Notes under the pieces: generated by a model
The model's input: only the letters and a program-made list of their open reading frames with translations
Databases searched by the model: none
Told to the model about the DNA's origin: nothing
Position numbers and translations under genes: made by a program
In this document: positions 45,620-61,457 of the stretch, in pieces
How the letters are laid out: every line of letters begins with the position of its first letter
Position numbering within the stretch: the stretch's first letter is position 1
Assembly (NCBI GenBank): GCA_030390025.1
Contig: CM059432.1
Location: forward strand, 67,830,001 to 67,894,000
Origin: Squalus acanthias
Taxonomy: Eukaryota
DNA length: 64,000 nucleotides
Direction of reading: 5' to 3'

Positions 45620-48400
45620 TTGTGTCTTAATGCAAGGAGCATTCGGATCAAGGTGGATGAATTAGCTGCGCAAATAAAGGGAAATGAATACGATTTGATT
45701 GGGATTACAGAAACATGGCTCCAGGGTGGCCAAGGCTGGGAACTCAACATCCAGGGGTATTCAATATTTAGGAAAGATAGGCAAAAAAGAAAGGGAGGTG
45801 GGGTAGCATTGCTGGTTAAAGAGGGGATTAACACAATTGAAAAGAAGGATATTAGCTCTGATGATGCGGAATCTGTATGGGTAGAACTGAGAAATAACAA
45901 GGGGCAGAAAACGTTCGTGGGAGTGGTATATAGACGTCCAAACAGTAATACGGAGGTTGGGGATGGCATTAAAAAGGAAATTAGAGAAGCATGCAGTAAG
46001 GGCACAGCAGTTATCATGGGTGACTTTAATTTACATATAGATTGGGCTCACCAAATTAGTAAAAATACTGTGGAGGAGGAATTCCTAGAATGTTTACGGG
46101 ATGGTTTTCTGGAACAATATGTCGAGGAACCAACCAGAGATCAGGCCATCTTAGACTGGGTATTATGTAATGAGAAAGGATTAATTACCAATCTTGTTGT
46201 ATGAGGCCCCTTGGGTCAGAGTGATCATAATATGATAGAATTCTTCATTAGGATGGAGAGTGAAGCAGTTGAATCAGAGACTAGGGTCCTGAATTTAAAT
46301 AAAGGAAACTACGATGGTATGAGACGCGAATTGGGTAGGATTGATTGGGGAATGTCACTCAAAGGGTTGACGGTGGATAGGCAATGGCAAACATTCAAAG
46401 ACTGCATGGATGAACTACAGAATTTGTTCATCCCAGTGTGGCATAAGAATAAAACAAAAAGGGTGACTCAACCGTGGCTAACAAGGGAAATTAGGAATAG
46501 CATAAGATCCAAGGAGAGGGCATATAAATTGGCCAGAAAAAGCGGCAACCCTGAGGATTGGGAACAGTTTAGGATTCAACAAAGGAGGACAAAGGGATTA
46601 ATTAAGAAGGGGAAAATAGAAAATGAAAGTAAGCTTGCAAGGAACATAAAAACTGACTGTAAGAGCTTTTATAGATATGGGAAGAGAAAAAGATAAGTGA
46701 AATCAAGTGTAGGTCCCTTGCAGTCAGAAGCGGGGGAATTTATAATGGGGAACAAAGAAATGGCAGACCAATTAAATGCATATTTTGGTTCTGTCTTCAC
46801 AAAGGAGGACACAAATAACTTCCCAGAGATGTTGGAGAACATACAGTCTGATGAAAGGGAGGAACTGAAAGAAATCAGTATTCGCAGGGAAATGGTGTTA
46901 GGGAAATTGACGGGATTGAAGGCCGATAAATCCCCAGGGCCTGATAATCTACATCCTAGGGTACTTAAGGAAGTGGCCCTAGAAATAGTAGATGCATTGC
47001 TGATCATCTTCCAACATTCGATGGAATCTGGAACTGTACCCATGGATTGGAGGGTAGCTAATGTTACCCCACTATTCAAAAAGGGTGGTAGAGAGAAAGC
47101 GGGGAATTACATCGGTAGTGGGGAAAATGCTAGAGTCCATTATAAAGGATGTAATAGCTGAGCACTTGAAAAACAGTGACAGGATCGGACAAAGTCAACA
47201 TGGATTTACAAAAGGTAAATCGTGCATGACTAATCTACTGGAATTTTTTGAGGTTGTAACTGGGAAAATAGATAAGGGAGAATCAGTAGATGTGGTGTAT
47301 TTGGACTTTCAAAAGGCTTTCGATAAGGTCCCGCATAAGAGATTAGCATGTAAAGTTAAGGCACATGGGATTGGGGGCAAGGTATTGACTTGGATAGAGA
47401 ACTGGTTGGCGGACAGAAAGCAGAGAGTAGGAATTAATGGGTCTTTTTCCGAGTGGCAGGCAGTGACTAGTGGGGTACCGCAGGGATCGGTCCTTGGACC
47501 CCAGCTATTCACAATATACATTAATGATCTAGATAAGGGAACTAAATGTAATATCTCCAAGTTTGCAGATGACACAAAGCTGGGTGGGCGTCTGTGCTGC
47601 AAGGAGGATACTGAGAAACTCCAGGATGATCTGGACAGGTTGGGTGAGTGGGCAGAAGCGTGGCAGATGCAATATAACGTGGATAAATGCGAGGTTATCC
47701 ACTTTGGTGTCAAAAACAGAAAGGCAGAGTATTATCTGAATGGCAATAGATTGGGAGAAGGGGAAGTGCAACGAGACCTGGGTGTCCTTGTGCACCAGTC
47801 GCTGAAGGTAAGCATGCAGGTGCAGCAGGCGGTGAAGAAGGCAAATGGTATGTTGGCCTTCATAGCGAAAGGGTTTGAGTATAGAACAGGGATGTCCTGC
47901 TGCAGTTGTACAGGGCCTTGGTGAGACCACATCTTGAGTACTGTGTGCAGTTTTGTTCGCCTTATCTGAGGAAGGAGGTTCTTGCCATGGAAGGAGTTCA
48001 GCGAAGATTCACAAGGCTGATACTGGGATGGCAGGAATGACATATGAGGAGAGATTGGGTCGATTGGGCTTATACTCGCTGGAGTATAGAAGAATGAGAG
48101 GCGATCTCATCGAAACATATAAAATTCTGACAGGTCTGGACAAACTAGATGCAGGAAGAATGTTCCTGATGGTCGGAGAGTCCAGAACCAGGGGTCATAA
48201 TCTAAGGATAAGGGGTAAGCCATTTAGAACAGAAATGAGGAAGAATTTCTTCACCCAGTGAGTGGTGAACCTGTGGAATTCTCTACCACAGAAGGTAGTT
48301 GAGGCCAAGTCATTAAATATATTCAAGAATGAGTTAGATATATTTCTTAAAGCTAAAGGTATCAAGTGATATGGGGAGAAGGCAGGTACAGGGTACTGAG
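45620..48400 (+). pseudogene. CR1 ORF2 (APE endonuclease and reverse transcriptase), several stops and frameshifts
   Basis: LNARSI, GITETW, GDFN, SDHN, LDFQKAFD, PQGSVLGP and FADD motifs. Confidence 0.95.
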
Positions 48401-49013
48401 TTTGGATTATCAGCCATGATCTCATTGAATGGCGGAACAGGCTCGAGGGGCCGAATGGCCTACTCCTGCTCCTATCTCCTATGTTTCTATGTTTCTATGA
48501 TCCTCTATCTCAATACCATATTCCCACTCTCTCCCCTTACCCCTTGATGCCTTTTGTTTCTAGAAATCTATCTATCTCCTTCTTAAATATATTCAGTGAC
48601 TTGGCCTCCACAGCCTTCTGTGGTAGAGAATTCCATAGGTTCACCACCCTCTGAGTGAAGATATTTCTCCTCATCTCAGTCCTAAATGCCCTACCCCGTT
48701 TCCTGAAACTGTGACCCCTCGTTCTTGAACCCCCAGCCAGGGGAAACATCCTCCCTGCATCCAGTCTGTCTAGCCCTGTCAGAATTTTATACGTTTCAAT
48801 GAGATCCCCTCTCATTCTTCTAAACTCTAGTGAATACAGGCCTAGTCGACCCAATCTCTCCTCATACGACAGTCCTGCCTTCCCAGGAATCAGTCTGGTG
48901 AACCTTCGCTGCACTCCCTCTATGGCAAGTATATCCTTTCTTAGGTAAGGAGAACAAAACTGCACACAGTACTCCAGGTGTGGTCTCACCAAGGCCCTGT
49001 ATAACTGTAGTAA

Positions 49014-50225: not shown

Positions 50226-52084
50226 ATAACTGTAGTAAGACATCCTTGCTCCTGTACTTAAATCCTCTTGCAATGAAGCCCAACATACCATTTGCCTTCC
50301 TAACTGCTTGCTGCACCTGCATGTTTGCTTTCAGTGACTGGTGTACAAGGACACCCAGGTCCCTTTGTACATCAACATTTCCCAATCTATCACCATTTAA
50401 ATAATACTCTGCCTTTCTGTTTTTCCTACCAAAGTGGATAACTTCACATTTATCCACGTTATACTGCATCTGCCATGTATTTGCCCACTCACTCAAATTG
50501 TCTAAATCGCTTTGAAGCCTCTTTGCACCCTCCTCACAACTCACAATCCCACCTAGTTTTGTGTCGTCAGCAAACTTGGAAATATTACATTTGGTTCCCT
50601 CATCCAAATCATTGATATATATTGTGAATAGCTGGGGCCCAAGCACTGATCCCTGCGGTACCCCACTAGTTACCACCTGCCACCCCGAAAAAGACCCATT
50701 TATTCCTACTCTCTGTTTCCTGTCTGTTAACCAATTTTCAATCCATGCCAGTATATTACCCCAATCCCATGTGCTTTAATTGTGCACACTAACCTCTTAT
50801 GTGGGACTTTATCAAAGGCCTTCTTAAAATCCAAATACACCACATCCACTACCATGTTGACTTTGTCTAATCCCGTTGATATTTTCTAAGTATCCTGTTA
50901 TCACATCCTTTATAATAGACTCTAGCATTTTCCCTACTACTGATTTTCGGCTTGGTAGTTCCCTGTTTTCTCTCTTCCTCCTTTTTTAAATAATGGGGTT
51001 GCATTTGCCACCCTCCAATCTGCAGGAACTGTTCCATAATCTATAGAATTTTGGAAGATGACAACCAATGCATCCACTATTTCCATGGCTACCTCTTTTA
51101 GTACTCTGGGATGCAGATTATCAGGCCCTGGGGATTTTTTGGCTTTTAGTCCCATTAATTTCTCCAGCACTATTTTTTTACTAATACTAATTTCCTTTAA
51201 TTCCTCCTTCTCACTAGACCCTTGGTTCCCTAGCATTTCTGGGAAGTTATTTGTGTCCTCTTCCATGAAGACAGAACCAAAGTATTTGTTTAACTGCTCT
51301 GCCATTTCCTTGTTCCCCATTATAAATTCTCCCGTTTCTGACTGTAAGGGATCTACATTTGTCTTCACTAATCTTTTTCTTTTTACATACTTGTAGAAGC
51401 TTTTACAGTCCACTTTTATGTTCCTTGCAAGTTTACTCTCATACTCTATTTTTCCCCTCTTAATCAATCTCTTGGTCCTTTTTTGTTGAATTCTAAACTG
51501 CTCCCAATCCTCAGGCTTGCTACTTTTTCTGACAACTTTATATGACTCCTCTTTGGATCTAATACTATCCTTAATTTCTTTTGTTAGCCATTGTTGGGCC
51601 GCTTTTCCTTTTGTGTTTTTGCGCCAGAAAGGAATGTATAACTGTTGCAATTCATGCATAAGTTCCTTAAATGTTAACCATTGCCTATCCACCGTCATGC
51701 CTTTTAATGAAGCTCCCCAACCTATCATCACCAACTCCCTCCTCATACCTTTGTAGTTTCCTTTGTTTAGATTTAGGACCCTAGTTTCAGATTGGATTAC
51801 TTCACTTTCCATCTTAATGAAGAATTCTATCATGTTATGGTCACTCTTCCCTAAAGGACCCTGCACAACAAGATTATTAATTAACTCCTTCTCATTGCAC
51901 AATACCCAATCTAGGATAGCCTGTTCCCTAGTTGGCTCCTCAATGTACTGGTCTAAAAAACCATCTCGTACACACTCCAGGAATTCATCCTCCACAGTAT
52001 TATTGCTAATTTGGTTTGGCCAGTCTATATGTAGATTAAAGTCACCCATGATTACCGTAGTACCCTTGTTACATGCATCTCTAA

Positions 52085-53500
52085 TGTAAAATTCGCAATT
52101 ATCGCGATTCGAAATAACAAGATAGAAGCAGATTTGTTTGATCAGTTTATTTAAACGAAATGCTGTCATGATATAAAGGACACAGAAGCCTGTAAAATGG
52201 CCACCGAGCATCGTGGCAGAAGCTTCCAGAATACAGTGGGCAGACAAGATAGCGTTCGAATAAACATTTCAGTATAAGATTGGATAATACTCGGCAAACA
52301 TTGATAAAGACAGGATGCAACCTGTTTGCATTTGTGACAATAGCAAAGATATAAGTGCTGGAATCGTTTTCCATGCACAAATAAGGACCATTGTACTGGG
52401 CAATCGAAGGCCCATCCAGATACATCAATACGCAAATTCCCCACGGCTCTACAATGAGAGAGCCATTCTCGGGTGATTAAGTCAGTATTCGAGGAGGCCC
52501 CAAAACCAGTCAGGGAGACTCCTAGCCGGTTCGACAATGGGGAAAACATTAACGGATAGTTGGCCAGTTTAAGGTGCTACCGAAACCCATTAAAGGAAAG
52601 AATCGCCCCATGCTGGGAGTTTTGTGCACCAGTATTACACAAATGACAAACATTAAGATTTGAGCGGGAGATAAGGGAACCCAGCACTATAACTATAGAA
52701 AACAAATGTCCATCGGTCTCTTGACTGTTTTATCTCGCTGATGACTGCTGAACTTTTATTCTCCTATTCTGATCCTCGGGTATCGCTCTGCTGGACGAGC
52801 AGCTTTTTGTTTTTCTCTGGATTCTGTTGACTATGTTGGGTGGAGCTCGAACGGAACGAGTCGCCTCGACGAAGGCCAGTGACCGGGTGCACCATCCCAC
52901 GAGTTGGTAAACGGTGTTTGGACACGAAGGCCCGAAGAAGACGAGACGAGATGAGAAGAAGAGGAGAAGAAGTGGTGTACAGAGACCCCTCCAAACACGT
53001 GACAGTCAGGTGCTGCAGCGAAACGAACCGAGTGCCTCGTTTAAAATTCTCCGAAGTATCACGAGTGGTGAGCATGTTTCCCGATCCTACAAATCTAGAC
53101 ATAGTGTAGGTATTGATAGGGGAGGGTGGTTTTATTAAGGATAAATATAATGTGTTCCCCTTTTTACAATGTGCCGTGCGTTCTTCATTACCATAGACCA
53201 AGCTTTATGAATGTATGTATACTTGTACTATCGTTAATTTGTGCCTATGACATGTACTTCATGATTTTGGACGTTATGCAATAAAGATTTCCATTTCGTA
53301 CTATTCAACCGGGTCTATTTGAGTTTTTCTCTGCATTACTGCTCTCGCACCTAAGTCCAGTGTTAGAACCGTAAGGGCGAGTGGGTCGAACCACTCACAA
53401 GTGCTTATTGCAACAAGGCTGGCCGGAGACCAGAGCAAGCAATAGTATTAGGCAACGAAGGCCTAACTCCGTACAAGCACCCCGTACCGAACCCCTTACA
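52085..53500 (+). repeat. 5' LTR
   Basis: Direct repeat of 59433-60848 with about 25 substitutions by manual count; AATAAA at 53280. Confidence 0.97.
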
Positions 53501-53504
53501 GAAA

Positions 53505-55286
53505 ATGGCGACCACGAAAGGAGGCTGGCAGCGAGAGAGTAATGTTTTAGACCCTGGTGTGAATAGGCGAAATGTGATGGATGAGAGGGTAGCCGACTAT
53601 GTGTTTGGGAAGGTGGATAAGTGACCTGCTGATGGATAAGCGTCTGCTAGACGCAGCCATCAAATGGACAGACAGTAAAGAGCATAAGAAGTCGGCAGAG
53701 AAAGCGGTCTGGCTGATGTGCTACAAGAAGCAAGTCCAACTTTCGGACCAGGTCATTGTGGCACAGGCAGCTCAGATCAGGGAATTGGGAGTTGAGATGG
53801 AGGAAAAGGTCACGGGAGGACAGAAACTCATCGCATCCTTGAATGCGTTACATCAGGAACGCCAGATAGTAGCCAACCACCATGAGGCTAAAATAGATTA
53901 CCTAGAGTGTCAGATCACGGAAGTGAAGTTAAACGAGGGTAGGATTAGAGAACGGTGTGCCCGCCAACTACCCAGATAAGAGCCCAAGAAGAAAGCTTGA
54001 AGGGAGTTAGGGCGGCATATAAGATGGCCCTCGAAGATAAGCATGAGGGAGCCGACCACAGTGTTTGCCAGAAGGAGATAGGGAACCTAAGAGAGGCCCT
54101 GAATAAGGCAAACGGCATGGTGTGCCTAATCAGCCCGTCAGCACACCAGCCACAGGTGGGTAGGGAATTCCCAAAATCCCTACCAGACAAAGCAGAGGAG
54201 GTATTTGCTACTGCACCCTCCGCGCCACCCAGCTATTCGGCAACCTGGGTAAGGAAGGAAGTGGTGGAAATAGAAGAGGAGGTCCCTGAGGTAGGACAAT
54301 CCCCAGAGGTAGTGTCGAAGCCGGGACCGTTGTGTCCGCTTACAGGTCACAAGAGGGGCCCGAACGGAGAAAATGGGGAGCACGGGGATGTCCTGAACCA
54401 GCTTGTGTTGCCTCACAGCTCACACCAGCTGAGAGCGATGATTAGTCATGTACAGAAGCTGTCTGAGTCAGACGACCCTTCCGTACACTTCAGGGAGGCA
54501 GAACAGACTGCAGCAATTAATGGCTGCGACGATGCGGAAAAGACTAAAATGTTGCTGTTCTCGTTAGATAGCTCGATCCTTCAGTGTCTCTCAGATGAGA
54601 GCAAGAGGGGAAATAATACCTATGAGAGGTTAAGGGATGAGGTCCTAGAAGTGTTGGGGGCGGACAACGAAGGTCCGTTCGTTAGATTGGGTCAGACAGT
54701 TGAGATGGAGGGAGAACCCCCGAAGGTTTTCGCCGACAGGCTGTGGCCAGTATACCAGCGTAGCTGCCCAGGTGCGCCAGCGCGCGCCTATTTGGACGGC
54801 GTCGGTTTAACTCATTGGCTCAGGTGTTTAGTAGCCAACAGTTTGCCAGCCGTCAGGGAGCAGGCCAAAGCGTGGTTTGATCCCACTAACCCCGCCACAA
54901 CAGTGGAGTCGGTCCTAAATCGACTCACGATAGGGTATCGGAACACTAGGAGCACGGGAGCGCGTCCCCTTAAGGGAAAGGTGCATGAGGCACGGCCCGC
55001 AGCCCCGGCTCAAAAGGAGTGGCATCAGGAGGGTAACTGCGCCCCGCAAGCCAGTGGTGCTTGTTACGGGTGCGGGAAGACAGGTCACTGGCGTAAGAAC
55101 TGTAGGAACCCCTGGAAGGACCCCAGGGATAAAAATCCCGCAGCCCGAACCCAAGCGCCTGTCTCTGAGAGAGGAGCTGGTGTGCCTATCCATCCCGATG
55201 CGATAGAATCAATGTTAGGAGCCATGCGGTCTCTCATGATTTCGCACGGGAAGGTAGCAACAGCCCCATACAACCCAGACTTCTGA
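53505..55286 (+). pseudogene. gag: Gag: coiled-coil N-terminus, capsid-like domain, CCHC zinc knuckle; two apparent frameshifts (~53615, ~53967)
   Basis: CYGCGKTGHWRKNC at 55062-55103 and an MHR-like segment EGEPPKVFADRL. Open pieces 53505-53624, 53599-53979 and 53955-55286. Confidence 0.85.
53506..53523 (+). promoter_or_regulatory. Primer-binding site, probably tRNA-Arg(TCG)
   Basis: TGGCGACCACGAAAGGAG versus the recalled vertebrate tRNA-Arg complement TGGCGACCACGAAGGGAC (16/18); 5 nt downstream of the LTR. Confidence 0.8.
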
Positions 55287-56366
55287 CTGGAACCGGTGCA
55301 GCCTGCCTACCTGTGTCCCCTTGAAAGACGCGCACAGGAGGGGGTCTCCTGTAAGGAGGCCAGGTTAAAAGAGCAGGCCTTACGGGAGGAGAACGCCCGT
55401 TTAATGGGGAAAGTAGACGGGCTAGAAGGGCAGCTTAGAGACATAAAAGCAGCCTACAGGGTAGCCAGGAGCAGGGAGTATGAGGATTTAAAACAGAATA
55501 GAAATCTGCAGCCTCCAGCAGGCGAGATTTCACAGAATGCACAAGCAGGGGCGGTGGCCTGTCTTAGGGGAGGGGCCAGACCTGCGAGTGGGGACTCTCA
55601 GCCCCAAGCAGGACAGCAGGGCACACAGACCGGTAAAGCAGCCTGTTTGAGGGGAGAGGACATTCTAGAAAAGTGTAGGATCTTTTCTTGGGGTTGGGAT
55701 TCCGATGAGGAAGAGCTCGAGGAGCTCGACCAAGATAGTGACCCGATCGGAGAGGTGCTGAGATCGGAGGACGAAAGGTTTGTCCTCGACTCAAGCTTAG
55801 GGGAAATAGGGATTGCGAGTGGAGATCCACACAGGGTGGAATCAGAAACTGCAGGTCCCGAGCCCAGGGGGACGGAGCTAGGGGAGACGGAGCCAGCGGC
55901 TGTGGTAGGACCACAGGTCGTGACAGTGGAAGTCTCGGAACCCGGTCCGTCAGCCTTGGAAGTCTTGCCCTTGGGGGAGGTAGGGATTGTGAGTGGAGGA
56001 CCACATACTGGGCCAAGTAGGGTGGTACCAGAAACTGCAAATCCCGAGTTCAGGGAGGCGGAGCCAGGGGAGACGGAGCCGGCGGCTGTGGTAGGACCGC
56101 AGGCCGTGACGGTGGAAGTCTCGGTACCCGGTCCGTCGGCCCTGGAAACCTTGTCCAATGTAGCCCTCCGTAGGTCAGGTCGGACACCCCAGCCCAGGAA
56201 GGCGTGGTCAAGTCCCCCGTACGCCCCCAGGCGTAAGTTCAAGGTCAAGGCAGCCCAGGGAGATCCCAGTCCCAGCGCAGCAGCGACAGGCTGCGGCAGA
56301 TCAAAGGAAGGGGTCAGTGCCCTCCCACCACTGGGAAAAGCTCGTGGCAGCCTTCGCAGAATTTAG
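55287..56366 (+). CDS. Unknown ORF in frame with gag after a single TGA (coiled coil, acidic tract, internal repeat, basic tail)
   Basis: 359 open codons directly after the gag stop; no protease, RT, RNase H or integrase catalytic motifs. Confidence 0.6.
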   Translation: MEPVQPAYLCPLERRAQEGVSCKEARLKEQALREENARLMGKVDGLEGQLRDIKAAYRVARSREYEDLKQNRNLQPPAGEISQNAQAGAVACLRGGARPASGDSQPQAGQQGTQTGKAACLRGEDILEKCRIFSWGWDSDEEELEELDQDSDPIGEVLRSEDERFVLDSSLGEIGIASGDPHRVESETAGPEPRGTELGETEPAAVVGPQVVTVEVSEPGPSALEVLPLGEVGIVSGGPHTGPSRVVPETANPEFREAEPGETEPAAVVGPQAVTVEVSVPGPSALETLSNVALRRSGRTPQPRKAWSSPPYAPRRKFKVKAAQGDPSPSAAATGCGRSKEGVSALPPLGKARGSLRRI

Positions 56367-56647
56367 GTAGGCCGCCCTGGGAACGGGCGGCGCTGTACAG
56401 TTTATAAGTTTAGGAGAAGTTTATAAGTTTAAGTTTATAGGTTTTAAATCAGGTTAAGTTTGTAGTTTAATTTTAACAGAAAATGGTATAAATGATGGGA
56501 GTTAGAGATAGGAATGGTTAAAGTCTATCCAGCATACATGTCGTTATACGTGAGATGAGGTCAAGGGACCCGCTCACCCTTCACAAAAACCAGAGACTCT
56601 TGGGAGGCTGGCTACATCATTTTATCTGATCACAGGAACCAGGAAAG

Positions 56648-58998
56648 ATGGAACGGATTCTGATAGGGCTCGCAGCGATCGGATATGGATTGGCCTATCA
56701 GGGCCTCACCAAGGATGTCGTTGTGTTTGGTTGCTCCGGGGACACGGCCCCCATCGCGACGGATGGGACCGGGAAGCGAAAGGCTGAGGAGACCGCCACC
56801 TATTTCCACAAGGGAAGGTGGCCGGGATGGCTGGGAACAAATTCAACGGAATACTCCAGTGCATCGGGATTTGCCTACAAAGAGACTTCTTTACTGTGCC
56901 CCAGAGTGAGGACCATTGCACCCAGACTCAGCGTCACCGTCGGCAAAAGGATTTGTTTGACATACAATGGGAAGGTCCCATTGAGCCGATGGTGGTGGTT
57001 ACGGAAGTTAAGCAAGAATATGAGAAATTTCTCGGTTGAGTGGGAGCGATTGGGTAACAAAACCCATCGGACAATTACGGGGACTAACGGACAATTGAAA
57101 GTCTGTTGGGACAAATGGTGGGAACCAGATGAGGGAATATATGTTTGTATGTGGGGATCGAAGTACGTTTGCCCCAAGGGTATATCCATATTTTTCGTAA
57201 ACCAGTGGCAGGATAACGGGAAAGGGATGAGGTGGGATGTCAGCACCAGGGGGTACGGAGCTCCATACTCCCCGATCCCGGTAAACGCCACTGAACTCAT
57301 CACGCGCCCACGCAAGGCCCCGCCCACGATTCCGGTGGTTTTGGCTCAGGAGGAAGGGTGCCCTAAAACCACTAAGGGGCCCGGGAATGGTTTGGTACTG
57401 GTCCCAACAGACCAGCTACTATTTGAAGGGGTACATTACGCGGTGGCCTCGGTAATTTTAAATCTCACCGAGGTGCGGTTGCCAGAGTGGTGCCCCAAAG
57501 AGACGGAACAATTGTACCAGGTCCTGTTGACAAACATGTTTAGACAATTCTACGAGTTTGATTTTGCAGAGATTGACAAAACATGCTTGTACACCACACC
57601 ACACGAAGTTTTGGGTCGGGTAGGGAGACAAAGGAGGGGCATTGTGAACGATATGTTCACCGCCTTTAATACAGGAACATCTGTGGTCAACGCTCTAGAC
57701 AACGTGGAGCTGCAGACCCAGATCAATGGTTTAAAAACACAATTAAAAAGCATCCTCACAAGCGAAAACAAGGTAGTAGGGTCTGAGTTACATGAGGACC
57801 AGGCCATGACGCTACACTTAAAGGAAATTATAGCAGAGCTGGAGAAGCATGCGAGAACGGTAAATGCCCTGATTAGGGAAGATCGGAATGCATCCGATCA
57901 AGCTGCGCAGAACGAGGTGTGCGTACTATACGGGGCGTTGTTACTGGGCGAGGGCCGCAGTAATTTGGAGGATTTAAAACAAGGTTTGGTCCCGTCCTGG
58001 ATAAGTAACAAACACCTGCAGACGCTCCACCCTTTTCAGAACGCATTAAGCCCGTGCCAGCTCAGGCTAGCCTCAGAGGCGTACCCTGTCCCCGTGGACT
58101 GCGGACGGTCAAACCATACCATCATGGGTATAGTATTACGTATGCCGGTTTTGGGCGACACAGCAAAGCCCGCCCCGGTGTATCGGGTAGAGAACATTGG
58201 TGTCATTCAGGGGGGAGCCCACATTCGCTATGCAGCGGTCCCACCTTACGTCATCCGCTGGGAGCAAACGATGACAGGTACCGATCTCTCAGGTTGTCGT
58301 GGCAGGGAGCACACATAATCCTGTGTCCCCAGCACTTGAATGCCTTTTTAACACCACAATGCGGGTTCAGAACGGCTGGCGCCAAGCCCATGAATTGCAC
58401 CATGGAGGCAATGACACAAGATCATGTGCCTCCACAGGTGGCATACATAGGGGGTGGAACATATTGCGTTACCACTGCAGCGCAACACTACCAGCATGGA
58501 AACCGCAGCCGGTGTCCGGTGAGTGACAGCAGTTTCTGTTTTAAACCCAGGGCTGAAGTTCAAGTGGCACAGCAGCGAATTGTCCCGATCCCTGAACCAT
58601 CCACTGTTCATCTAACAGTAAAAGAGAATTTCACCGACTTGCAGCGATTCGTTGCGCATTTCGGATACATCATTCCCCCTCTCCCTGAACACCTCACCAA
58701 GCTTTTGAAAGCCGTCGCGGTATCGCGAAAACATTTTTACACCCTAGAACAAAAGACTGTCGAGATAGGGACAGAAATTCTAGACATAGTAATCCCACCG
58801 TGGTGGGACCTGTTCACCAATATTGAAGTGCCTTCATGGATCAGAATAGCCTCCCACATTTTAGTTGTGTGCCAAGCAATAATTGTAGTGTACCTATTGG
58901 TCGTGCACTGCAAGAGAGGCAAGCGCCTCACAAAGCAGGAGAACACAGGAGAGTGGAGAGAACGTTACGTGCACGTGCACGAGGAAAGCGCCGCGTAA
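56648..58998 (+). pseudogene. env: Envelope / class I fusion glycoprotein (F-protein-like), one frameshift at ~58312
   Basis: Signal peptide, NxS/T sites, furin site RQRR (57626-57637), fusion-peptide-like segment and heptad repeat, Cys-rich region, C-terminal TM helix and short basic tail. Confidence 0.88.
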
Positions 58999-59420
58999 AC
59001 GGCCAGGATGACGCCGCTCCATTTTACCATGTGTGTTCTTGTAATTGATTGTTAGTTATGAAGATATGTAACCAAGTTGGGAACTTTGTATTTTAAAAGA
59101 GTTGTTTTTGATTATTTTTAACTTTTGTATTTTTAAAATGGTTGTTTGATTATTTTTTCCTTGCATAATAAAATACATATACAGGTGGTGCGAGAGGCAT
59201 CGGCCTATTGCACCTGGAAGACGTATACGCGATGTAAGTTTAAAAGGCAATACTGCCTACGGTTTTGTCCAAGTTTAAACAATGTATTTTTCTCTGGGAA
59301 ATGAGGACGGCATGGAGACCATAGATAGTTTAAGTTCAGGGAGTGTTTGGATGTGGAGAATCGGGATAATTTTGCTCACCACCACTTTTAATTGATACGA
59401 TAAGCGGAGTTATTCGCATC

Positions 59421-59432
59421 AACAGGAGGGAC
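59421..59432 (+). promoter_or_regulatory. Polypurine tract
   Basis: AACAGGAGGGAC directly before the 3' LTR. Confidence 0.75.
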
Positions 59433-60848
59433 TGTAAGATTCGCAATTATCGCGATTCAAAATAACAAGATAGAAGCAGATTCGTTTGATCAGTTTATTT
59501 AAACGAAATGCTGTCATGATATAAAGGACACAGAAGCCTGTAAAATGGCCGCCGAGCATCGTGGCAGAAGCTTCCAGAATACAGTGGGCAGACAAGATGG
59601 CGTTCGAATAAACATTTCAGTATAAGATTGGATAATACTCGGCAAACATTGATAAAGACAGGATGCAACCTGTTTGCATTTGTGACAATAGCAAAGATAT
59701 AAGTGCTGGAATCGTTTTCCATGCACAAGTAAGGACCATTGTACTGGGCAATCGAAGGCCCATCCAGATACATCAATACGCAAATTCCCCACGGCTCTAC
59801 AATGAGAGAGCCATTCTCGGGTGATTAAGTCAGTATTCGAGGAGGCCCCAAAACCAGTCAGGGAGATTCCTAGCTGGTTCGACAATGGGGAAAACATTAA
59901 CGGATAGTTGGCCAGTTTAAGGTGCTACCGAAACCCATTAAAGGAAAGAATCGCCCCATGCTGGGAGTTTTGTGCACCAGTATTACACAAATGACAAACA
60001 TTAAGATTTGAGCGGGAGATAAGGGAACCCAGCACTATAACTATAGAAAACAAATGTCCATCGGTCTCTTGACTGTTTTATCTCGCTGATGACTGCTGAA
60101 CTTTTATTCTCCTATTCTGATCCTCGGGTATCGCTCTGCTGGACGAGCAGCTTTTTGTTTTTCTCTGGACTCTGTTGACTATGTTGGGTGGAGCTCGAAC
60201 GGAACGAGTCGCCTCGACGAAGGCCAGTGACCGGGTGCACCATCCCGAGAGTCGGTAAACGGTGTTTGGACCCGAAGGCCTGAAGAAGACGAGACGAGAC
60301 GAGAAGAAGAGGAGAAGAAGTGATGTACAGAGACCCCTCCAAACACGTGACAGTCAGGTGCTGCAGCGAAACGAACCGAGTGCCTCGTTTAAAATTCTCC
60401 AAAGTATCACAAGTGGTGAGCATGTTTCCCGATCCTACAAATCTAGACGTAGTGTAGGTATTGATAGGGGAGGGTGGTTTTATTAAGGATAAATATAATG
60501 TGTTCCCCTTTTTACAATGTGCCGTGCGTTCTTCATTACCATAGACCAAGCTTTATGAATGTATGTATACTTGTACTATCGTTAATTTGTGCCTATGACA
60601 TGTACTTCATGATTTTGGATGTTATGCAATAAAGATTTCCATTTCGTACTATTCAACCGGGTCTATTTGAGTTTTTCTCTGCATTACTGCTCTCGCACCT
60701 AAGTCCAGTGTTAGAACCGTAAGGGCGAGTGGGTCGAACCACTCACAAGTGCTTATTGCAACAAGGCTGGCAGGAGACCAGTGCAAGCAATAGTATTAGG
60801 CAACGAAGGCCTAACCCCGTACAAGCACCCTGAACCGAACCCCTTACA
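59433..60848 (+). repeat. 3' LTR
   Basis: TGTAAG...CTTACA followed by TSD CTAA. Confidence 0.97.
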
Positions 60849-61457
60849 CTAATTTCCTGTTTGATGTCGTCCCCTACATTACCACTACTGTTTGGAGGCC
60901 TATAGACAACTCCCACTAATGTTTCCTGCCCCTTGGTGCTTCTTAGCTCCACCCAGACTGATTCTACATCTTGATTTTCTGAGCCAATATCCTTTCTCAC
61001 TATTGCTCTGATTTCATCCTTTACTAACAACGCCACTCCACCTACTTTTCCTTTTTGCCTGTCCTTCCTAAATATCGAATATCCTTGGATATTCAACTCC
61101 CAGCCTTGGTCACCCTGCAGCCATGTCTCCGTAATCGCAATTATATCGTATCCATTTACATCTATTTGCGCTGTTAATTCTTCTACCTTATTACGAATGC
61201 TTCGTGCCTGATAGAAAAACCCGGGAGAGTAACAATACATTAATACCCTTGTGATCCAAACTGGATATGCTTGTCTTTTGAAAGTGTACTTTATTAATTA
61301 CCCCAAAATGGACCAAGCAAACATTTGGTGAGACAAGGCCAGATATGAATCATTAAGATGCTTTAACTCACAGTAAAGTGAACATACAGAACAGCTGTTT
61401 TGGCCAGGCTCACTCAATTCAATCTGTGCAATTTATTTTTGTGTATTAATACAAATC

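Follow-up and report, generated by a model that had tools for sequence, protein, structure and literature searches.

The window analysed here is a stretch of 64,000 nucleotides from Squalus acanthias (NCBI GenBank assembly GCA_030390025.1, contig CM059432.1, positions 67,830,001 to 67,894,000 of the forward strand), and it carries a provirus with paired long terminal repeats (LTRs) at positions 52,085–60,848. In this element, the part of pol lying between codon 12 and the integrase tail is replaced by an in-frame cassette derived from gag. Genomes bearing the cassette are numerous and separately integrated, and have gag, env and LTR ends in common with proviruses that carry pol. We consider these to be, with a probability of roughly 80%, defective partner genomes of a basal endogenous retrovirus (ERV) in the grade of the snakehead retrovirus (SnRV), recombining with their pol-bearing helpers. 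The window element is one worn copy of this large family.

A gag-derived cassette in place of pol

Using tblastn, the whole 1507-residue Pol of a helper matched the window at residues 1–16 and 1206–1507 only, and no protease, reverse transcriptase (RT), RNase H or integrase core was found in the window by this search. The initial annotation had reported no motif of any of these enzymes, which stands for the enzyme domains but, given that the integrase tail is kept, applies to integrase only as regards its catalytic core. Off-frame LPQG words in the provirus interior are attributed to chance. That annotation had also listed a 359-codon open reading frame (ORF2) between gag and env without noting its make-up; by alignment, it is no new gene and is instead a chimera of pol codons 1–12, the gag-derived cassette and the integrase tail. 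In all four element types read, the gag–pol border has an in-frame UGA with CUA or CUG directly after it, which corresponds to the alphavirus type II context for readthrough (PMC13517186). The UGA ahead of ORF2, being in a context of this leaky type, is a putative readthrough site.

The origin of the cassette is best seen in its long form, which aligns, with few gaps, to the Gag of the element itself between the coiled coil and a GMVC motif (scores of 116 and 138, each reached by 0 of 2000 shuffles, with the coiled-coil make-up helping the score). Given this protein-level alignment and the lack of any match between the cassette and the element's own gag at the nucleotide level, the cassette derives from a divergent gag. 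The form in the window is the long form minus 46 codons, while other forms differ by another deletion, by a duplication of 23 codons or by an integrase junction that lies earlier, and every version seen stays in frame. At least 227 genome matches were obtained for the window form and at least 150 for the long form. Short motifs (xxAVAC, xKAAC, xAYLC and GMVC) recur at Gag and Pol domain borders and inside ORF2 (55300–55650), and are candidate protease cleavage sites.

All copy counts are lower bounds that include haplotig duplicates (loci L002 and L003 share flanks). The interior of the element gave 29 scored matches in the genome, 17 of which (window locus included) are collinear end to end, the other 16 at 93–96% identity. 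Target site duplications (TSDs) were checked at 12 loci (11 distinct), with both ends readable at six distinct loci, and five of these six display matching and mutually different 4-bp duplications (CTAA, AATA, ATAG, GTGG and TGCT). The ends of L004, L009 and L010 could not be read, and L006 and L008 are tandem proviruses. Beyond the window locus, 28 of 29 top gag matches continue into the cassette and one into protease. Of the 116 gag matches, 42 have the pol-less C-terminus and adjoin a listed cassette match, with none adjoining a listed pol match; six have the helper C-terminus and adjoin pol, with none adjoining the cassette. The remaining 68 adjoin neither among the matches listed; 15 of these were read, with the cassette following all 11 of the long type and pol all four of the short type. 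We also noted tandem arrays of pol-less proviruses at C3:64285928-64318256 with a period of about 6.4 kb, and head-to-tail pairs with a common LTR (L006, L008).

The pol-bearing helper locus is close to the window element (95.8% nucleotide identity in gag and 95.7% in the tail and env), has its own target duplication, and encodes protease, RT, tether plus RNase H (PF17919/PF17917, then PF00075) and integrase. Its pol has at least 88 scored matches in the genome at 96–100% identity. The initial annotation had proposed a non-autonomous family that keeps gag and env and borrows enzymes from a helper, and had suggested looking for copies of the same pol-less layout at different TSDs as well as for the helper itself; both are present in this genome. 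In the helper Pol (L046; window 55571–56366), a tail of ~265 residues follows the SH3-like domain of integrase. This acidic, Pro/Gly-rich tail with a basic end is lacking in frog relatives and shorter in SnRV, and may be a cleaved accessory product.

Recombination with helpers and probable selection on the cassette

A second backbone, B, is 74–81% identical to the window and occurs both with and without pol: among its 141 scored matches, 54 lie in frames of 382/393 residues and 76 in frames of at least 1000 residues, and one of each was read. The pol-less B and helper B copies are 97.9% identical on one side of the cassette and 96.2% on the other. B-type matches had been considered as the cassette donor and were ruled out, B being a second pol-less subfamily. 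A third backbone (87–91%) holds the long cassette form. Synonymous divergence (dS) between A and B, with one copy of each, is 0.08 in the cassette versus 0.81 in gag, 0.40–0.53 in env and 0.49 in the tail. The window is itself a mosaic, with positions 55290–55577 being 81–97% like pol-less B and at background level to both helpers (72% at the pol-start codons), and the flanks on either side being 92–100% like helper A. On these identities, the cassette has crossed between backbones 20–25% apart.

The gag gene tells a similar story. On a tree of 49 copies (38 pol-less and 11 pol-bearing; L063 was skipped), pol status requires 9 changes versus 10.2 for shuffled labels, with 92 of 500 shuffles as low. 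At 83 of 104 variable gag sites, both alleles occur in both pol classes (36 pol-less versus 10 pol-bearing A-type copies), and the r2 between gag variants and pol status is 0.01–0.05, rising as far as 0.43 only beside the junction (last 150 nt). Repeated changes at CpG sites can raise the four-allele count, but they cannot mask linkage. Since gag variants are unlinked to pol status and one cassette sits in two backbones, pol and the cassette behave as alternative alleles within one recombining virus population. The family is no separate lineage and recombines freely with its helpers, which the initial annotation had not noted. Mechanistically, cassette-genome RNA would in all likelihood be co-packaged with helper RNA, and then copied and integrated by helper Pol. 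Template switching on both sides of the cassette would shift it between helper backbones, and the gag and env of cassette genomes would thereby be constantly refreshed from the helper pool.

Selection was gauged from variants shared by at least two of 29 copies. In the cassette these comprise 13 silent and 11 replacement changes (ratio of replacement to silent polymorphism per site, pN/pS, 0.24; Fisher p 0.0004). The corresponding ratios are 0.21 in gag (29 copies; biased, as 18 were chosen by Gag similarity) and 0.11–0.19 in env (11 copies). No stop codon is common to several copies, and shared insertions or deletions in ORF2 keep the frame in three of three events, whereas private ones shift it in nine of 12. 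Since gag and env are exchanged with helpers, a signal specific to the pol-less genomes comes from the cassette alone.

Several observations weigh against a selected cassette in a mobilised partner genome. The integrase tail is without amino-acid constraint (ratio 0.75–0.85; shared-variant pN/pS 0.77, p 0.41), and in the single A–B cassette pair there are 12 replacement but only 4 silent changes, a ratio of 0.84. The purifying selection seen on gag and env may have come from helpers through recombination, and template switching between like codon phases can produce in-frame junctions. At one of the six readable distinct loci (L007), the flanks do not match. No donor gag for the cassette emerged from the database or genome searches: there was no homologue among database proteins of 197–629 residues, none in a Gag-length frame among the matches listed for the long form in the genome (at least 150), apart from one of 879 residues that was not inspected, and nothing in an Atlas feature search with the cassette. 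Finally, mobilisation, co-packaging, readthrough and the fusion protein are predicted from sequence.

The cassette could instead be kept as an RNA element (a packaging, dimerisation or readthrough structure) with its frame incidental and no useful protein made, which we regard as unlikely. The low A–B dS of the cassette and the unconstrained tail would fit such a role, as would a stem that pol-less copies can form after the UGA (z −1.6, −1.6 and −3.0). In helpers, however, the stems are not significant (z −0.9 and 0.0) and a readthrough stem-loop is unsupported there. Shared changes in the cassette are moreover mostly silent, and deletions of 46 codons, the 23-codon duplication and the moved 3′ junction have been tolerated, always in frame.

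Similarly doubtful is a mutualism in which pol-less genomes go beyond mere parasitism and give the helper extra Gag and Env, as has been argued for pol-less Athila elements (PMC2410132). Full gag and env are retained in three backbones, and replacements are scarce among private env changes too (pN/pS 0.30–0.37, 11 copies chosen by DNA similarity), but free recombination with helpers accounts for intact gag and env without any helper benefit.

Within the preferred reading of a recombining defective partner, a bolder and less likely version has the virus persisting as two co-packaged genome types, one with pol and one with a selected, translated Gag-derived module. This module would spread across subfamilies like an allele, and its protein would either promote the genome that encodes it or contribute structural protein. 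Such a retrovirus population, with its F-type envelope, would effectively be bipartite. In four runs presumed to be RNA (from two studies and with two organism labels), contigs cover 30 of 30 bins of the element, the cassette included, which shows presence only.

Envelope fold and placement of the helper

Env was modelled on a related copy in which its frame is open (alignment of 26 rows; predicted local distance difference test, pLDDT, 71.5). With Foldseek, the model matched the F protein of human parainfluenza virus 3 at an E-value of 1.5e-11, with those of respiratory syncytial virus, henipavirus and Newcastle disease virus also matching, and comparison with nine F entries gave Z-scores of 10–11 (with a high root-mean-square deviation from conformation). 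As initially annotated, the predicted Env is thus an F-type protein, modelled as a class I fusion protein of the paramyxo/pneumovirus F fold. It was picked up by fold alone, as Pfam and PDB profile searches did not recognise it. Since a foamy virus Env (Z 8.1) and, among predicted viral structures, walleye epsilonretrovirus Envs match too, an F-like Env is not diagnostic for a lokiretrovirus; found here on a basal retrovirus of another kind, it is unfit for calling lokiretroviruses in sharks. The closest named relatives of this Env are in sawshark and skate (62–79%), followed by other sharks and frogs. About 240 residues precede the F-like part (56648–57400); one relative is named Ig-like domain-containing and another has a weak V-set match. 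In Gag, the zf-CCHC match is sub-threshold (E 0.0014), an Atlas feature search gave gag-type clusters at 0.93–0.95 as a lead, and the capsid region, folded from a single sequence, gave a model of unusably low quality (pLDDT 42).

The helper is best called a basal retrovirus in the SnRV-like grade, judging from its RT. The RT motif is LPQG, while PFG occupies that place in 24 of 24 lokiretrovirus RTs (supplement of PMC7947760). Over RT and tether, identity to the helper is ~50% for frog and coelacanth Pols, 37% for SnRV and 35–36% for RTs with the loki motif. In the RT tree, it falls on the retrovirus side, apart from the loki-motif RTs (support 98/99; loki grouping rejected by the approximately unbiased (AU) test, p 0.017), outside class I and beside SnRV and the frog and coelacanth Pols, with which it forms a grade and not a clade. 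Ty3/gypsy rows form a 100/100 clade that excludes it. The placement goes no finer than this grade in trees that had no foamy, ERV-L or class II rows; SnRV is row P0070, recognised through the RT given for it in the PMC7947760 supplement, the loki-motif rows are L096–L098 (two full and one partial, L098, with a stop inside RT), P0151 and P0160 were dropped for short cover, and the first large RT tree was a quick tree. Of SnRV-like or class III traits, the element has in-frame gag–pol with a stop and TGT...ACA ends; its TSD is 4 bp long, whereas ERV-L and XtERV-S are described with one of 5 bp.

A lokiretrovirus or an env-bearing Ty3/gypsy element, the affinity suggested initially, is therefore most improbable given the RT motif, the tree and the AU test. 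The F-like Env, the coiled-coil Gag, the tether with a second RNase H and the NYNRIN-like database names of relatives point that way, but the tether and second RNase H are common to all retroviruses, and the second RNase H is missing from gypsy elements, which form a separate clade. No exact loki-motif pattern was found in this genome (a weak negative), and the survey in the supplement of PMC7947760 gives no lokiretrovirus in six chondrichthyan genomes. The three contigs L096–L098, from a metagenome collection, carry fish-type lokiretrovirus RTs and are probably host DNA. A one-off loss of pol after insertion at the window locus, for which nothing speaks but the single locus, is refuted by the recurrence of this junction, foreign cassette included, at dozens of loci whose duplications differ.

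Comparison with known systems and further features of the element

Each ingredient of this system has precedent; its structure and recombination are well supported, and translation and function are inferred. In cattle ERVK[2-1-LTR] C/D, recKoRV and MusD/ETn (PMC10924933), as here, the central segment of a competent ERV has been exchanged for an older retroelement piece, and in the cattle C/D pair the flanks likewise recombine with competent copies, with linkage confined to the boundary. The shark family similarly shows many separate pol-less insertions and recombination with competent copies in shared flanks. In contrast, D-type cattle elements are without intact gag, pro, pol or env, whereas the shark family keeps whole gag and env, with an insert that is in frame, shows protein-level constraint and has crossed backbones 20–25% apart. 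Mouse IAP I-delta-1 (PMC6466679) is likewise a non-autonomous ERV, and the in-frame Gag-Pol remnant left by its deletion reportedly acts in cis, but this is a plain deletion with part of gag gone, in an env-less betaretrovirus with no foreign cassette. Pol-less Athila elements (PMC2410132) share the LTR-gag-env-LTR layout, ORFs under purifying selection and recombination with pol-bearing families, but are plant Ty3/gypsy elements with their own pol-less families, while the shark forms share one gag pool. Zebrafish BHIKHARI is non-autonomous likewise, with Bik-2 stated to keep gag and to be without pol and env (10.1101/2024.03.25.586437).

Among retroviruses, SnRV and SnRV-like ERVs, known from the elephant shark as CmiERV lineage I (PMC4422223, PMC4977317), share an LPQG-type RT and other motifs with the helper. 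SnRV also has a gag–pol readthrough context, using UAG (PMC13517186), and a tail with a basic end after the SH3-like domain of integrase. It differs in its lower Pol identity and in forming no common clade with the helper in these trees; the comparison covered Pol and the gag–pol border. Lokiretroviruses (PMC7947760) share the F-like Env and coiled-coil Gag, but belong to a different RT clade. In the open-licence literature, we found no vertebrate ERV family with whole gag and env and a coding cassette replacing pol, nor this shark family, though Repbase, Dfam or closed preprint supplements could hold one; the accessible parts of 10.1101/2023.10.17.562709, 10.1101/2023.10.26.564294, PMC10435555, PMC12193657 and PMC8278194 contain nothing bearing on the layout.

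Mammalian defective ERV partners usually lose env or all coding capacity, whereas the shark family keeps both structural genes, with pol swapped for a coding, frame-conserved module that jumped between helper backbones. The family offers a large natural data set on defective genomes parasitising, or cooperating with, a retrovirus, and would be missed entirely by RT-based ERV surveys.

The features of the window copy are collected in Table 1. All cis signals named in the initial annotation are present (LTRs with TGTAA...TTACA ends, TSD, primer binding site (PBS) and polypurine tract, the last a mere short purine run), and its description as structurally complete is apt for the layout but not for the coding, gag and env being frameshifted. 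The two LTRs are 98.2% alike, with 25 mismatches (20 transitions) and a Kimura two-parameter distance of 0.018. Two rates quoted in PMC4422223 put this distance at about 4 to 41 million years, leaving the age of the insertion uncertain.

Table 1. Features of the provirus, with positions counted from the first nucleotide of the window
Feature	Positions	Strand	Remarks
Target site duplication CTAA (left)	52081..52084	+	
5′ LTR, 1416 bp	52085..53500	+	Candidate TATA 53146 and candidate poly(A) signal 53280, by motif alone
PBS, tRNA-Arg(TCG)	53506..53523	+	Overlapped by first gag ATG (53505)
gag	53505..55286	+	Coiled coil, capsid-like region, one CCHC knuckle; three frames in window copy (53505–53624, 53593–53979, 53949–55286); ends UGA-CUG
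pol codons 1–12	55287..55322	+	In frame after gag stop
pol-replacing cassette, ~83 codons	55323..55570	+	Shortened form of divergent-gag fragment, coiled coil to capsid start
Integrase C-terminal tail of pol	55571..56366	+	Acidic, Pro/Gly-rich, basic end; without SH3-like domain
env	56648..58998	+	Modelled class I fusion protein, paramyxo/pneumovirus F fold; RQRR cleavage motif, one transmembrane segment; two frames in window copy (56630–58318, 58009–58998)
Polypurine tract, short	59424..59431	+	
3′ LTR, 1416 bp	59433..60848	+	
Target site duplication CTAA (right)	60849..60852	+	

The PBS starts 5 nt past the 5′ LTR and matches the 3′ end of the genome's tRNA-Arg(TCG) gene plus CCA at 16 of 18 bases, with 18 of 18 fitting in sister copies. 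Its overlap with the gag ATG means that the PBS doubles as the start of the gag frame. The PBS sequence varies in blocks between copies, a pattern that priming by different tRNA-Arg isodecoders would produce. Over its 5′ two thirds (window 52085–52970 compared with L002–L012), the LTR varies strongly between copies (76–95% alike, with LTR lengths of about 1380–1680), and over its 3′ third copies are ~94% alike; the two LTRs of L010 are unlike each other (82%), which hints at LTR swapping. No Rfam match was found.

The provirus inserted into a single minus-strand ORF resembling a long interspersed element, presumably of CR1 type by its endonuclease motifs (a candidate label), the frame of which runs on across the empty site. 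Upstream of the element (48023–48886), we noted a 378-nt inverted repeat, 80% complementary, which is probably two host repeats in opposite orientation.

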